Source: a virus
Strand: one strand, 5' to 3'
Length of the DNA: 16,276 bases
Virus genome (UHGV): UHGV-0160852
The notes beneath the pieces are model-generated. The model saw only the letters and a list, made by a program, of their open reading frames with translations, was not told the DNA's origin and did not search any database. Made by a program: the position numbers and the translations under genes. Positions 1 to 8,537 of this stretch are shown here, piece by piece (the stretch's first letter is position 1; each line of letters starts with the position of its first letter).

Positions 1-835
1 AAAACTGAACAGGCTTATGAGTCCAGACGTCGGTATATGGCACTGTGACCGATACGCTGAATGGTCGCCGTAAACGGTAATACTCCTGCTGGAGTTCAGA
101 ATATTTTCTGCTCAACGATTGCCAGGTAGCGACAAGCTGGTGGTGAGGTTTTCCCAGTTCGTTGCGTGAGTGCTTATCCATGGCGATTTTTTGAAACAGA
201 GCCTGCAACTTCAAATAATCGGCTTCATTCGGCAGTTGCCACTGGCTAAGGCCAAACCAGTGGGAAACCATATTTTTTTTACCCGTGGCTTCTGCAATCT
301 GGGCCGACGTCACGCCAAGAGATTCCCGGGCATCCCGGAAGTAAGAAATTAAAGGCGTCATGACGTGTTGCTTTAACTCATTACACTTTGCGGCATATCC
401 ATCGTCTTTGGGCCTGTATGGCCCCTGATAATGGTCGGCAAAAATGATACGCTCAGTGGCCGGGAAATAAGCGCGTAAGCTCTCCTTATTGCAGCCGTTC
501 CATCGCCCTGATGGCTTAGCCCAGATGATATGGTTGAGCAGGTTAAACCGCTCTCTCACCAACAGCTCAATATCCGCTGCCAGGCGGTGCCCACAGAACA
601 GATACATGCTGCCGGCAGGTTTTAACACTCGCCAGAACTGTGCCAGACAGCTATCCAGCCAACGTAAATAGTCCTCGTCCCCCTTCCATTGGTTATCCCA
701 GCCGTTTGGCTTCACCTTAAAATAAGGCGGATCGGTAACAATAAGATCAATGGAGTTATCGGGTAGCGATGGGAGGTATTGCAGGCAATCAGCATTGATT
801 AATTCAATACTGGATATTTTTACAGTATTTTTCAT
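1..835 (-). CDS. DNA N6-adenine methyltransferase (DPPY motif), 3' end truncated by window edge
   Basis: Minus-strand ORF open from ATG (complement of 833-835) to window start; translation begins MKNTVKISSIELINADCLQYLPSLPDNSIDLIVTDPPYF, i.e. the DPPY catalytic motif of N6A/N4C methyltransferases in the position typical of phage Dam-like enzymes. Not in the ORF track because it has no in-window stop. Confidence 0.85.
   Translation of the reverse strand, partial: MKNTVKISSIELINADCLQYLPSLPDNSIDLIVTDPPYFKVKPNGWDNQWKGDEDYLRWLDSCLAQFWRVLKPAGSMYLFCGHRLAADIELLVRERFNLLNHIIWAKPSGRWNGCNKESLRAYFPATERIIFADHYQGPYRPKDDGYAAKCNELKQHVMTPLISYFRDARESLGVTSAQIAEATGKKNMVSHWFGLSQWQLPNEADYLKLQALFQKIAMDKHSRNELGKPHHQLVATWQSLSRKYSELQQEYYRLRRPFSVSVTVPYTDVWTHKPVQF
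808..827. promoter_or_regulatory. LexA-box-like near-palindrome TACTGGATATTTTTACAGTA
   Basis: Matches the enterobacterial SOS box pattern CTG-N10-CAG with AT-rich spacer (consensus TACTGTATATATATACAGTA); lies over codons 3-9 of the methyltransferase gene. Single site, could be chance. Confidence 0.3.
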
Positions 836-4752: not shown

Positions 4753-5151
4753 TCAACCCACAGCTGTACATGTATCCACCACTTTTTGATAGCAGACTAT
4801 GGTGATTTCTACCCTGCCTCCTTTGACGATTTCACCCCATTCAATAGCCATACGCTTAACCTGGTTGTCGTCCTCCCAGATACCGGCATAAGTCAAAGCA
4901 TCAAGAAGTGCCTTGTTGTAATTGTCCAGGTCACGCCGGCGATAGTCTGGCGGATAGAGAATAATTTCTACCGCTGCTGGCGCAGTAGATGGTTTTGGTA
5001 TTGCACGCAGTTGCTCAATGATCGCTGACCGTACTGCATGTTTGAATTTACGGCCGGCTGCGCTGACAAGATGTTTACCTTTTGCGGGCCCCTTATTTGG
5101 GGACCGCCAGTAGGTGTTCACGCTGGGTGGGAATGGAAGAATAAATTTCAT
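4753..5151 (-). CDS. rusA: crossover junction endodeoxyribonuclease RusA (Holliday junction resolvase)
   Basis: MKFILPFPPSVNTYWR... and PPDYRRRDLDNYNKALLDALTYAGIWEDDNQV match the RusA family hallmark (RRRDLDN catalytic region); 4-bp ATGA overlap with the upstream gene. Confidence 0.93.
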   Translation of the reverse strand: MKFILPFPPSVNTYWRSPNKGPAKGKHLVSAAGRKFKHAVRSAIIEQLRAIPKPSTAPAAVEIILYPPDYRRRDLDNYNKALLDALTYAGIWEDDNQVKRMAIEWGEIVKGGRVEITIVCYQKVVDTCTAVG

Positions 5152-5624
5152 TCTGCCTCCAGCACTATTTTCAACTCAAACGGAACATCTCCTCCGCAAT
5201 AGCAGAGCGGGCCAAGGTCAGACATGAGGCTCCACAGGGTCATTGACGTATAGCCATTTTCGTCTGTTACCGGGGGCGAAAAGTCCCCGAAGATCCCCGG
5301 GTGCTGGATTCGATTCTGCTCGTGTTGTTTTTCCAAATGTCTGAGGGAAACTTCATTAAGTTTCACTTTTACGATGCTGTTGAGATTGACCGATATTTCT
5401 CTGGCCAACAGCGAAGGGGTGATACTGATACCGCGAGAAACCCCGCGGGTGATTGTGATAACACCCTTTTTCTCCAACGCCTTGAGGTGCGTTGCTGCTG
5501 CATTGGGGGACCGGCACCCCAGCATGCCGGTCAGTTCGTAAGTTGTAGGCGGAAAACCATGTATACGCTGATATTCGATCAGGAGGTCCAGTACCTCCTG
5601 CTGCCTTAAGGTCAAGGAAGTCAT
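5148..5624 (-). CDS. LexA N-terminal DNA-binding-domain homolog lacking the S24 peptidase domain
   Basis: MTSLTLRQQEVLDLLIEYQRIHGFPPTTYELTGMLGCRSPNAAATHLKALEKKGVITITRGVSRGI parallels E. coli LexA residues 1-70 ([66 protein letters not shown]); the C-terminal ~85 aa has no Ser/Lys peptidase signature. Start at the ATG at 5624 (GAGGAG upstream, ATGA overlap with the MTase stop); alternative ATG at 5651. Confidence 0.8.
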   Translation of the reverse strand: MTSLTLRQQEVLDLLIEYQRIHGFPPTTYELTGMLGCRSPNAAATHLKALEKKGVITITRGVSRGISITPSLLAREISVNLNSIVKVKLNEVSLRHLEKQHEQNRIQHPGIFGDFSPPVTDENGYTSMTLWSLMSDLGPLCYCGGDVPFELKIVLEAE

Positions 5625-7591
5625 GCTGCCTGCTCCTCTCTGTTCACGCACATTTCGGGTAAGTTGGCGCGAACCAGCGCTTCGGCGAACGGCGGCGGGA
5701 CGGCATTGCCACAGCGCGCAACCTGCTTATCTTTCGCGTATTTCACGCCGCGGTAATCCTGGTCAATGATGTACCACTCGGGGAAGCCCTGCGCCCGGTA
5801 AAGTTCGTGTGGCTGCAGCATGCGCATGCCGATATCAACGATGCGGTAAGTCACTCCGCCGATTTCCACCAGACCGGTGCATTCCTCTCCGCAGTATTCC
5901 TGCAGGAACGACAGCACCTGCTGCGCTCGCTCTTCGTCATAGTCCTCGACTGCCAGAGTCGTTTTAACCTCGCCTACGTGCTGGCCACCAGCAGTGATAG
6001 TCGGCATCGGCTCGTCAGTGCGCTGGCCATCGCGGCATGTACCACGGAGCTTGATCAGATGAGACGTAACCATTGCGGCATCAGCCTTTGTCGTCATGGT
6101 TTGCAATGGCTCGCTAACGTCACGTGGCCTGCTCTGCCCAGCGCGACCGCCAACACCAACAATCTGAGCAGTAACCAGCGCATGATGATCGACGGTAGTA
6201 ACTGAATGAGCTGGTTCATCCAAGTCAATACCGGCGCCCTGATAATTCCCGCCATAGTGTTTCGCCAGGAATGCGGATACCAGTTGCGATTTACCGCCGC
6301 CGCCCGCGGTGATTGTTGCGCTAGGTTCATCCGCCCGGTGTCCGATGCTTGCGCCGAACTGCCGGGCGATAACCGGAGCGACGACACAGGCGCGCGATTC
6401 TTTCAGGATGGTGTGAGCGGGTTTATCGAGAGGGCGTGGTTTAGCCTGGTACTCGCTGCCGCCATTGCCAGCCAGGAACGGCGCCAGCTCTGCTTCAACA
6501 ATACCCAGAGCGTGACCATTCCCGCCCGGGCGTTTTGCGGTACCGGCCGTCACCGTCGGCAACGGATCGGTGACTTCCTGCCCGGTAGCTCCGGTTCGGA
6601 ATTTTGTCAGATGAGGTACCGCAATTGCGTAGCCGTGGGTTTTCGTAATCGTCTGTAGCGGATCGTCCAGCGCCTGTCCCCGGAAACAGTCGTAATTGCC
6701 ACGTGTCGTTGTGTGATTGCACTTCACAATGAATGGCGAAGCACTTTCGATAACAAAGCGCTGAATGCCGCGGGCAATCCGTTTTAGCGTATTCTCAGCC
6801 AGTGACTTTTTGCGACCGAAGATGCTCGGCGCGGGGATTGACCAGTCTATGCATTCCGCAGCTGTACGCCACGGCTCAAGCTGGCCCGCCAGCACGGCGG
6901 CAGACTTCGGATCCCCGTGCGTGGCTTCCGGCCAGACTATCGGTTTCCCGTCCCGGCGCATCACCATGAAGAACCGCTTACGGATGGTCGGCGCGCCATA
7001 ATCGCAGGCGCGCAGCTCGCGAAAATCGACGACATAACCCAGCCCGGCAATTAAGCGCTGGGCCTGCTCGCTATCCGGTGAAAACTCCAGAAACTCGCAA
7101 CACTCCACCAGTGCAGGATGATCTGCTGGAATACCGGTGGTAAGCATCCCGACAAATGCATTGAAAGTTTCACCGATGCGTGCCGGATCCGGGCGCATTT
7201 CTGCCGCGAGTAACGGGCCCCACGTTTTAAACTCTTCGACGTTTTCCAGCATCATGACTCGCGGGCCAACATCCAGCGCCCAACGAATGACGATCCATGC
7301 CAGCCCTCGAATAGCTTTCTCTACTGGTTTAGCACCTTTCGCTTTAGAAAAGTGACGACAGTCAGGCGAGAACCATGCCAGGCCGACAGGCTTGCCACTG
7401 GTAGCGGCTAATGGGGATACATCAAACACACTTTCGCAATAGTGAAGCGTGTCGGGATGGTTAGTGCGGTGCATAGCAACGGCGTTAACATCGTGGTTAA
7501 TAGCAATATCAACACTGCGCCCTATTGCCAGTTCAATACCTGTACTGGCGCCACCGCCGCCAGCGAAATTATCGACAATAATCTCACGCAT
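5621..7591 (-). CDS. DNA cytosine-5 methyltransferase with an unusually long, internally repetitive variable region
   Basis: Motif I FAGGGG, PC motif FSPDCRHFSKAKG, ENV motif MMLENVEEF, motif VIII-like TIRKRFFMV and C-terminal motif X CGNAVPPP. Between the catalytic halves about 350 aa carry seven repeats of (D/E)-x-P-x-x-T-[IVM]-T. Confidence 0.93.
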   Translation of the reverse strand: MREIIVDNFAGGGGASTGIELAIGRSVDIAINHDVNAVAMHRTNHPDTLHYCESVFDVSPLAATSGKPVGLAWFSPDCRHFSKAKGAKPVEKAIRGLAWIVIRWALDVGPRVMMLENVEEFKTWGPLLAAEMRPDPARIGETFNAFVGMLTTGIPADHPALVECCEFLEFSPDSEQAQRLIAGLGYVVDFRELRACDYGAPTIRKRFFMVMRRDGKPIVWPEATHGDPKSAAVLAGQLEPWRTAAECIDWSIPAPSIFGRKKSLAENTLKRIARGIQRFVIESASPFIVKCNHTTTRGNYDCFRGQALDDPLQTITKTHGYAIAVPHLTKFRTGATGQEVTDPLPTVTAGTAKRPGGNGHALGIVEAELAPFLAGNGGSEYQAKPRPLDKPAHTILKESRACVVAPVIARQFGASIGHRADEPSATITAGGGGKSQLVSAFLAKHYGGNYQGAGIDLDEPAHSVTTVDHHALVTAQIVGVGGRAGQSRPRDVSEPLQTMTTKADAAMVTSHLIKLRGTCRDGQRTDEPMPTITAGGQHVGEVKTTLAVEDYDEERAQQVLSFLQEYCGEECTGLVEIGGVTYRIVDIGMRMLQPHELYRAQGFPEWYIIDQDYRGVKYAKDKQVARCGNAVPPPFAEALVRANLPEMCVNREEQAA

Positions 7592-8537
7592 GAGCGGTCC
7601 CCCTCATGCTGCCGACCAGCCCACCAGCAACGGTGATGATTTCGCTGGTGGGCACCCGCTCCAGCCACAACTGGTTAATGTGGGCCTTCAGCTTGTTCTG
7701 CTGGGAGAATTCCAGATCCCCTGCGCCTTGTACCTGTCCGAAGATGAGACCAACTTCCAGTGGCCAGATCCGGGATTCAGCCTCAGCTAATGATGCAACC
7801 GCATCGGGGATGATCACTTCAGGAGACTGAACTGGCGAAGCTGGTGGCAGGAATTTTGCTGCAGCAAACTCAGCCAAAGCCATACTTGCGCGCCCTTTCG
7901 CCTCAAGCTCTATACGATCGATATAGCTAAAGCGCTCTCCGCACCATGTCTTATCAAATATCACGATTGCACCAGCAAAGAAGGCGCTGGTGGGTTTCTG
8001 TTTATCATCCGCCGGCACAAACCAGGTCGGGAGATCGAAACCAATACGACCACGGATAAAACACACATGATCGGCATCTTCTGGCCACCATGTCTCGCTT
8101 GTCGCTGACTTCAGCAGGAAAACATAGCGCCCGCCCTTTTCTCGCTGCTCAGATGCATAACTCATGATGTGAGTCATGCCGGTGACTGCCTGTTTTTCGT
8201 GGTACTGAGAACGGCTATACGGTGGATTACCAAATCCTGCGCCACCAAGTTCTTCAAGGCGAGCGGACCAGTCCTGTGTTAAAGCGTTATCTTCAGCGGT
8301 ATACCATGCGGGGCATTTTGCATTGCTGTCGTCTGCAAACAGGTCCAGTACAAGCGGGCCAAACATAGCGTTAACGCCCCAGAACAGCAGATCAGGGGTA
8401 CGCCATTGATCCCCGACTTCTTTTAAATAATGCGCACTACGCTGGCGCTGTTCCTCAAGTGCCAGGCAATAAGGGCTGACGGTTTTTGTTAAAGTTTGCT
8501 CTTCTGCGGTCATAGCTTCTTGTACTTCCTGACTCAT
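7584..8537 (-). CDS. phage Dam-like DNA N6-adenine methyltransferase (NPPY motif) with C-terminal extension
   Basis: WRTPDLLFWGVNAMFGPLVLDLFADDSNAKCPAWYT and GFGNPPYSR match the phage N6-adenine methyltransferase (Dam) family; 8-bp overlap with the C5-MTase start. Confidence 0.8.
   Translation of the reverse strand: MSQEVQEAMTAEEQTLTKTVSPYCLALEEQRQRSAHYLKEVGDQWRTPDLLFWGVNAMFGPLVLDLFADDSNAKCPAWYTAEDNALTQDWSARLEELGGAGFGNPPYSRSQYHEKQAVTGMTHIMSYASEQREKGGRYVFLLKSATSETWWPEDADHVCFIRGRIGFDLPTWFVPADDKQKPTSAFFAGAIVIFDKTWCGERFSYIDRIELEAKGRASMALAEFAAAKFLPPASPVQSPEVIIPDAVASLAEAESRIWPLEVGLIFGQVQGAGDLEFSQQNKLKAHINQLWLERVPTSEIITVAGGLVGSMRGTAHA

Follow-up and report, generated by a model that had tools for sequence, protein, structure and literature searches.

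We analyzed a window of 16,276 nucleotides (nt) from the virus genome UHGV-0160852, in which an open reading frame on the minus strand (5621 to 7591, with the stop codon at 5621 to 5623) is a complete gene for a C5-cytosine DNA methyltransferase (C5-MTase) of 656 amino acids (aa). Between catalytic motif VIII (aa 202) and motif IX (aa 590), the enzyme carries an array of seven related modules. The reading that we put forward, and to which we give about an even chance, is that these modules are mini recognition domains that act as alternatives for a single catalytic core, which would make the enzyme a Gram-negative, larger-array counterpart of the multispecific C5-MTases of Bacillus phages. The case, drawn from sequence, is evolutionary and positional: it consists of the location of the array, a core resembling the TL motif of known recognition domains, type-defining loops on a common scaffold, cassette-like shuffling of modules, and constraint on each of them. 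By analogy, we infer that the modules contact DNA and differ in target, that a number of them are active, and that the enzyme has an anti-restriction role.

The seven module strings start at aa 309, 341, 389, 421, 458, 493, and 526, with a spacing of 32 to 48 aa, and the whole array covers aa 309 to 545 (nt 5957 to 6667), with the motif cores at nt 5993 to 6661. An earlier note on this DNA had placed seven repeat strings between 5850 and 6700, and all of them were present there; its figure of about 350 aa for the variable region was a fair estimate of the span from motif VIII to motif IX, which measures about 380 aa and consists of a conserved, confidently folded part (aa 213 to 308) and the array. 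When aligned, the modules have the layout [D/E]-[D/E]-P-x-x-T-[I/V]-T, followed by a short loop rich in Gly and His, a hydrophobic strand, and a linker rich in Gly, Arg, and Gln. The pattern P-x-x-T-[IVM]-T, which the note had assigned to all seven, was found in five and fails in module 3 (T-I-L) and module 5 (S-V-T), the core common to all being P-x-x-[TS]-[IVM]-[TL]. On an independent profile of 957 modules of other proteins, from which the query and its close relatives were excluded, the seven modules scored 20.2 to 35.8 bits, whereas the best score among 500 shuffled versions of the protein was 7.3 bits. The repeat has no model in Pfam, NCBIfam, or PHROG, where annotation goes no further than "DNA methyltransferase." Tandem Repeats Finder detected no DNA-level tandem repeats in the gene, so that the repeats can be seen only in the protein and the copies have diverged over a long time. 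We considered but dropped a diversity-generating or phase-variable mechanism for the array, since the gene is without DNA repeats. The net charge of the array was neutral and uninformative.

Clustering of 990 modules of the family gave about a dozen types, denoted here by letters, and in these terms the array reads D-J-L-B-G-A-M; all coordinates that follow are on the minus strand. Module 1 (aa 309 to 340, nt 6572 to 6667, DDPLQTITK...KFRTGATGQEV, 23.2 bits) is of type D, which is usually the first module in relatives. It is followed by module 2 (aa 341 to 388, nt 6428 to 6571, TDPLPTVTAGTAKRPGGNGHALG..., 20.2 bits), a type J module with a long loop, J standing after D in 11 representatives. 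Module 3 (aa 389 to 420, nt 6332 to 6427, DKPAHTILK...RQFGASIGHRA, 21.4 bits) is of type L and has related modules in P0243, P0159, and P0161. The highest score, 35.8 bits, was that of module 4 (aa 421 to 457, nt 6221 to 6331, DEPSATITAGGGGKSQL/VSAFLAKHYGGNYQG), of type B, which holds the junction of a 39-aa extra module present in eight-module relatives. Module 5 (aa 458 to 492, nt 6116 to 6220, DEPAHSVTTVDHHALV...GVGGRAGQSRPRDV, 26.0 bits) is of type G, with counterparts that are 71 to 79% identical in proteins about 55% identical overall and that stand there at the third to sixth place of the array. In Klebsiella phage 5 LV-2017, module 5 starts with G-G-P instead of D-E-P; hence, the two acidic residues preceding the proline are dispensable. 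Module 6 (aa 493 to 525, nt 6017 to 6115, SEPLQTMTTKADAAMVTSHLIKLRGTCRDGQRT, 27.9 bits) is of type A, and module 7 (aa 526 to 545, nt 5957 to 6016, DEPMPTITAGGQHVGEVKTT, 21.0 bits), which starts like type C and is assigned to type M, is 100% conserved compared with LV-2017. The array is followed by a helical insert with two strands (aa 546 to 587, nt 5831 to 5956; helix at 553 to 567, strands at 574 to 583), predicted with a per-residue confidence (pLDDT) of 82 to 92. This insert stands where the family usually has its last module, F (P-x-H-T-x-T-T-K-D-R-F-G).

To collect the family, 1.84 billion representative proteins were searched exhaustively, and 2,497 of them matched at an E value of ≤1e-30. 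In the best 150 of these (464 to 1,113 aa), module profiles counted 0 to 11 modules per protein, with a period that had its mode at 33 to 35 aa. The types are set mainly by the loops and linkers (for example, KLRGTCxDGQ, AFLAKHYGGNY, EVRAFLxKYYG, KFRTGxxG, QTGYGEREGQ, GxGGRAGQSRPR, and TEHANASSQR), and the scaffold of P..T.T and a hydrophobic strand is common to all. Among the best 148 representatives, we counted 143 different architectures. The array ended in C-F in 74 of them and in A-C-F in 53, with F running straight into motif IX, while the upstream part varied in number and order of modules. Type F was the last module in 84 representatives, and type M was last in 7 sequences, of which 4 were representatives, the others being the query and sequences closely related to it. 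Some type pairs were strongly directional (AC 80 versus 0, CF 74 versus 0, EB 43 versus 6, IH 21 versus 0, and also DJ), and others occurred in both orders (DG/GD, BG/GB, and DI/ID). Module types were retained at 60 to 79% identity in proteins that were approximately 50 to 55% identical overall, and they were found there at differing ordinal places.

The prophages that carry the family have mainly proteobacterial hosts, including Klebsiella, Raoultella, Escherichia, Pseudomonas, and Burkholderia. Members were also found in temperate phages, namely Pseudomonas phage F116, Pectobacterium phage ZF40, and phages of Citrobacter, Burkholderia, Aeromonas, Rhizobium, Agrobacterium, and Myxococcus, as well as in phages of Firmicutes, including a record labeled Bacillus phage phi105. 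This record (KY197768.1; 1643 to 3019 of locus L005) contains a 458-aa member with three modules ending in A-C-F, the gene for which is not annotated there, and its A-C stretch is 63% identical to the Klebsiella protein over 56 aa. Thus, the family crosses the Gram divide. In four long members, P0137 (1,113 aa), P0175 (931 aa), P0261 (938 aa), and P0265 (1,007 aa), the C5 domain starts only at aa 450 to 510 or so. One possibility is that these N-terminal extensions arose by fusion of the C5 gene with an upstream gene, Dam or PAPS-reductase-like, of the kind seen in phage Flotzy.

Whole modules also come and go among close relatives. In 121 protein clusters that were more than 85% identical, the query counted, the number of modules was eight in 91 (695 aa), seven, as in the query, in 29, and six in 1. 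The six-module form, P0028, lacks module 6, and in a further variant, P0022, module 6 is exchanged for a different module; the type strings are DJLEBGAM for the eight-module form, DJLBGM for the six-module form, and DJLBHAM for the swap. The extra unit in the eight-module form P0001 is DKPLGTVVAGGGK. Compared with the eight-module gene of locus L008, the gene studied here had 97.1% DNA identity and differed by a single in-frame block of 117 nt (L008 7317 to 7433, gene positions 1317 to 1433), which corresponds to about 6270 to 6275 of the window. In the longer form, GGTGGCGG(T/G)AAA is found on either side of the block, the flanks being GGTGGCGGTAAA and GGTGGCGGGAAA, both of which encode G-G-G-K. 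Because short direct repeats flank the block, the seven-module form appears to have lost one unit through recombination between neighboring repeats. It is widespread, with one cluster found on 279 contigs and another containing 1,062 member sequences.

Selection was examined by comparing the gene with that of Klebsiella phage 5 LV-2017, to which it had 81% DNA identity over its length. The ratio of nonsynonymous to synonymous substitution rates (dN/dS) was 0.044 for the array at a dS of 0.77 and 0 to 0.10 for single modules, compared with 0.047 for the catalytic N-terminal domain. Purifying selection acts on each of the seven modules with the same strength as on the catalytic domain, and therefore none of them looks like a decaying relic.

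As the earlier note had stated, the protein is a C5-MTase with the full set of catalytic motifs: it matched Pfam PF00145 in three stretches (E 8.2e-19; 68.6 bits against a curated cutoff of 22) and the PHROG families phrog_23072 and phrog_116, both annotated "DNA methyltransferase," and motifs I (FAGGGG, aa 9), VI (ENV, aa 116), VIII (TIRKR, aa 202), IX (RMLQPHE, aa 590), and X (GNAV, aa 628) followed in order. Motif IV has the variant form P-D-C (aa 76 to 78) and not P-C. Across 109 family members, C78, E116, N117, V118, R204, R206, and N629 were invariant. The protein scored only 45 bits against NCBIfam TIGR00675 (Dcm), below the curated cutoff of 100.65, and thus it is not a Dcm equivalent. 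The nearest matches of the gene were in Klebsiella phages, with 97.6% nucleotide identity over the gene to phage Kp4866-6.

We predicted structures with AlphaFold2 (AF2) for the query, with an alignment of 109 family sequences, and for a four-module relative, P0270, with an alignment of 40, and the cores of both were confident. In the query, the methyltransferase fold had a pLDDT above 90, and Foldseek matched it with a probability of 1.00 to entries of 3g7u, DNMT1, M.HaeIII (1dct), and M.HhaI, with E values of about 1e-8 for the last two. The N-terminal part of the core (aa 1 to 212, nt 6956 to 7591, minus strand), defined by motif positions, pLDDT, and Foldseek, carries motif I FAGGGG, motif IV SPDCRHFS, motif VI ENV, and motif VIII TIRKR. 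The region that follows it, before the array (aa 213 to 308, nt 6668 to 6955, with a helix at 266 to 281), had a pLDDT of 86 to 97 up to about aa 290 and was conserved in two family alignments. The C-terminal part of the core (aa 588 to 656, nt 5624 to 5830), with motif IX RMLQPHELYRAQGFP and motif X GNAVPPP, again had a pLDDT above 90 and gave alignments with 3g7u and DNMT1. By sequence (E 7.2e-9) as well as by fold, the nearest solved structure was 3g7u, a methyltransferase of prophage CP-933R of Escherichia coli O157. Like the enzyme studied here, it is a prophage C5-MTase, but it has only 376 aa and no module array, and it aligned to the catalytic core alone (aa 5 to 91, 175 to 211, and 589 to 641).

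The comparison with known recognition domains centers on the TL motif, (YFW)X(RK)X5P(STCA)PT(ILV)(TASV)X5-16H(PFYWL), which lies toward the C-terminal end of C5-MTase recognition domains, 10 to 50 aa before motif IX (PMC2413257). Its core, P-x-x-T-[ILV]-[TASV], fits four of the seven modules, the other three being one residue off, and 69% of 962 family modules fit as well. M.HhaI and M.HaeIII read DNA by two loops around the TL, the 5' portion of the site being read by loop 1 and the 3' portion by loop 2 (PMC2790894). In M.HhaI, for which we checked the sequence in the PDB, loop 1 is G233 to R240 (GKGGQGER), the TL is T250-L251, and loop 2 extends to G257 (TLSAYGGG). The DNA-reading part thus measures about 25 aa, and therefore a module of 32 to 48 aa could hold both loops. 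The Gly-rich loops of M.HhaI resemble the linkers and the T-I-T-A-G-G-G-G loops of the enzyme studied here, a likeness in motif and position only. M.HhaI and M.HaeIII have the same catalytic fold as this enzyme but a single recognition domain with a single TL motif.

Architecturally, the closer parallel is with the multispecific enzymes of temperate Bacillus phages (SPbeta group), which have been described as a means of guarding against many restriction systems by a single enzyme (PMC12707154). As the earlier note had supposed for SPR and phi3T, this analogy is borne out in the location of the array between motifs VIII and IX, in the TL-like core, and in the gain, loss, and swap of modules: in the corresponding region, M.SPRI, M.Phi3TI, M.Rho11sI, and M.H2I carry two to four T-[LIV]-[TSN] motifs, 30 to 48 aa apart. 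Like the enzyme studied here, they are phage-encoded orphan C5-MTases with one catalytic core, their TL motifs lie between motifs VIII and IX, as the TL-like module cores do here, and in both groups relatives differ in cassette content. Both groups also have an E-P-x-x-T-x-x-T-x-D-R-x-G element approximately 20 aa before motif IX. A BLASTP alignment of a family member with M.Phi3TI was colinear through the module region (E 2e-8, 24% identity) and paired SPTLTTMGGGH...EVRAVLT with PMPTITAGGLH..EVRAFLT and EPAFTVNTIDRHG with DPLHTVTTKDRFG. Detectable homology, however, is confined to the catalytic cores, and the likeness is otherwise one of architecture and motif. This family also differs in module number (seven here and 0 to 11 overall, versus two to four TL motifs in the Bacillus enzymes), in its shorter period, in its motif IV variant S-P-D-C-x-H-F-S, and in its mainly proteobacterial hosts. 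Inactive pseudodomains have been reported in the SPR/phi3T group, and the rho11s and H2 enzymes reportedly have fewer targets than their four TL motifs. In these proteins, the loop after one TL motif (aa 336 to 346, approximately) is SPTLTTMGEGH in M.Rho11sI and SPTLTTMGGGH in M.H2I and M.Phi3TI; if the M.Rho11sI loop is that of a pseudodomain, then presumably a single residue after the TL motif would decide activity. M.BssHII reportedly is also a C5-MTase with several targets, belonging to a Bacillus restriction-modification system and not phage borne.

The orphan enzyme, transcribed with the early-right (replication and nin-like) genes, would be made after induction or infection. If the array works as in the Bacillus enzymes, the single catalytic core (motifs I to VIII and IX to X) is interrupted by seven mini recognition modules, in each of which the Pro-x-x-Thr-[Ile/Val]-Thr strand would be the counterpart of the conserved TL motif. 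The Gly/His-rich loop that comes next would resemble loop 2 of M.HhaI and lead into the hydrophobic strand, and the Gly/Arg/Gln-rich linker, being loop-1-like, would probably work with the TL loop of the following module. The directional pairs AC, EB, IH, and DJ also suggest that a linker and the next TL loop form the working unit. The modules would then act as alternative DNA-reading heads for one active site, so that several short sequences would be methylated and new phage DNA would be shielded from several restriction systems at once, as by the SPR, phi3T, rho11s, and H2 enzymes. One could go further and see here a very large, uncurated family of poly-headed C5-MTases, belonging to temperate phages mostly of Proteobacteria, in which a dozen interchangeable modules, each about 35 aa long, form arrays with as many as 11 members and each linker reads one short target together with the next TL loop. 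Module order itself would then create specificities, an enzyme might cover perhaps 5 to 10 restriction specificities, and the code relating modules to sequences could be read from natural variants and serve to predict or design 5-methylcytosine targets; we consider this extended version tentative and somewhat improbable.

Several results weigh against reading the array as a set of recognition domains. The published TL consensus in its full form, which includes P-(STCA)-P and an aromatic-x-[RK] ahead of it, fits none of the seven modules. The comparison of the variable region with known recognition domains by structure and profile, which the earlier note had proposed, gave neither a reliable model nor a significant match. 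The AF2 models of the array had a pLDDT of 26 to 70 in the query and 29 to 68 in P0270 and were unreliable in both, and therefore no conclusion on module packing was drawn; the low values may stem from repeats that were misaligned in the input or from genuine flexibility. Foldseek matched the query model to the PDB in the catalytic core only. A module profile of 93 units gave only chance matches to PDB sequences (best E 0.94, herpesvirus UL34), and its comparison with the M.HhaI recognition domain by hhalign gave nothing. Against the four Bacillus enzymes, hidden Markov models of the modules picked the right motifs (SPT[IL]TT and EPAFTVNTIDRHG), but with nonsignificant E values of 0.08 to 2. 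The profile of the constant C-F end found the EPAFTVNTIDRHG element in all four at 3 to 4 bits, within the range of 1,000 shuffles. Additionally, a coarse type can occur twice within one protein (A in 30 proteins and B in 23), which would be redundant if type equals specificity. Most family members end in a constant A-C-F core, in which recognition could reside alone, and 7 to 11 heads would somehow have to share one active site.

Two other explanations were weighed on this evidence. The array could be one structural repeat domain, for example, a stack of beta-hairpins that clamps or slides on DNA, in which case the enzyme would have a single, possibly short or relaxed, specificity and the number of modules would tune affinity or processivity and not the choice of target. 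The modules do have in common, as structural repeats would, a strand, a turn, a second strand, and a linker, most of them contain long strands in the AF2 models, and none has significant similarity to a proven recognition domain; the preferred orders AC, CF, EB, and IH likewise suggest that neighbors pack or work together. However, one rigid domain fits poorly with nearly as many architectures as representatives and with widespread loss of whole modules in genes that are 97% identical. The types, moreover, are set by loops and not by strands, the opposite of what is usual in structural repeats, and the TL motif, with which the conserved Pro...Thr agrees, lies at the interface of DNA and active site in M.HhaI and M.HaeIII. 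We regard a single repeat domain as unlikely.

Alternatively, only the last one or two modules, those adjoining motif IX, might recognize DNA, with one or two targets, and those upstream would be inactive relics, similar to the reported pseudodomains, or serve another role such as nonspecific DNA tethering or protein binding. This would agree with the published distance of the TL motif from motif IX, to which module 7 comes near (59 aa) while the others lie up to 276 aa away, with the contrast between a constant end and a variable upstream part in most family members, and with the four TL motifs of the rho11s and H2 enzymes. Against it, every module, including modules 1 to 5, is constrained like the catalytic domain, unlike decaying relics, and the types of the upstream modules have been retained in deeply diverged proteins. 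In the Bacillus enzymes, the active recognition domains are those distant from motif IX. On balance, confinement of recognition to the end of the array appears quite unlikely.

In the open-access literature, multispecific C5-MTases were described for M.BssHII and Bacillus phages alone, and we found no mention of this family, an earlier description of which is possible, and a comprehensive review of 2025 credits the multi-target C5-MTase strategy to temperate Bacillus phages only (PMC12707154). From sequence comparison, the module array is real, and the enzyme is apparently an undescribed Gram-negative counterpart of those of Bacillus phages. The earlier remark that such an architecture is not typical of described enterobacterial phage MTases holds for this literature. 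In sequence databases, however, the architecture is very frequent and turns up in thousands of prophages of Klebsiella, Raoultella, and other proteobacteria. If the arrays work as proposed, the strategy would be common among prophages of Klebsiella, Raoultella, Escherichia, Pseudomonas, Burkholderia, and other bacteria, with arrays far larger than those of Bacillus phages, and it would bear on how well such phages and the DNA that they transduce get past restriction in bacteria of clinical importance. The natural eight-, seven-, and six-module forms and the swap variant are a ready-made means of assigning DNA targets to modules. The specificity of 5-methylcytosine (m5C) modification is poorly charted because PacBio sequencing detects m5C badly (PMC8936443, PMC11954522). 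Bisulfite methylomes of 14 Klebsiella strains contained CCWGG and MTCGAK only (PMC9684165), a result that is uninformative here, as carriage of the gene in those strains was unchecked and a gene of the lytic operon is expected to be silent in lysogens.

The window represents a lambdoid prophage of Klebsiella, in which the genes run in the order cI, cro, cII, an O-like replication gene, a small activator, Dam, C5, a LexA-like gene, RusA, KilA-N/Ant, DUF968/HNH, and Q, and an identical order was found in Klebsiella michiganensis. The allele does not belong to E. coli, as complete genomes of that species contained no near match. No restriction endonuclease partner adjoins the gene among its prophage neighbors, and the C5-MTase is thus an orphan, encoded in the early-right operon. 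Immediately upstream, a phage Dam-type N6-adenine methyltransferase of 317 aa (7584 to 8537, minus strand; PF05869, E 2.2e-42; phrog_111) has a stop that overlaps the start of the C5 gene by 8 nt, and the pair also occurs in loci L008 and L009. Downstream lies a gene for a small protein with a LexA-type DNA-binding domain (5148 to 5651, minus strand; PF01726, E 3.1e-19). Its start is probably an internal ATG giving 158 aa, as called in L008 and L009, and a 4-nt overlap with the stop of the methyltransferase gene. The protein consists of the PF01726 domain and an unassigned C-terminal half, without a peptidase S24 domain. The family phrog_29443 (273 positions) matched with its first half aa 1 to 155 of the C5-MTase (7127 to 7591) and with its second half aa 39 to 167 of the LexA-like protein; thus, some phages seem to carry a fused remnant from which most of the methyltransferase and the whole array have been deleted. 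In Klebsiella phage 5 LV-2017 (locus L006, 2982 to 5129), the deposited coding sequence of the C5-MTase has 715 aa, with an N-terminal extension of 60 aa, and its start probably was miscalled, because the extension overlaps the upstream methyltransferase gene. Beyond Q, a third methyltransferase gene, of the N6/N4 type (2 to 835, minus strand; PF01555, with a TDPPYF motif), begins at 835 and is cut by the left edge of the window. The prophage therefore has three DNA methyltransferase genes, and the same trio is found in L008 and L009.

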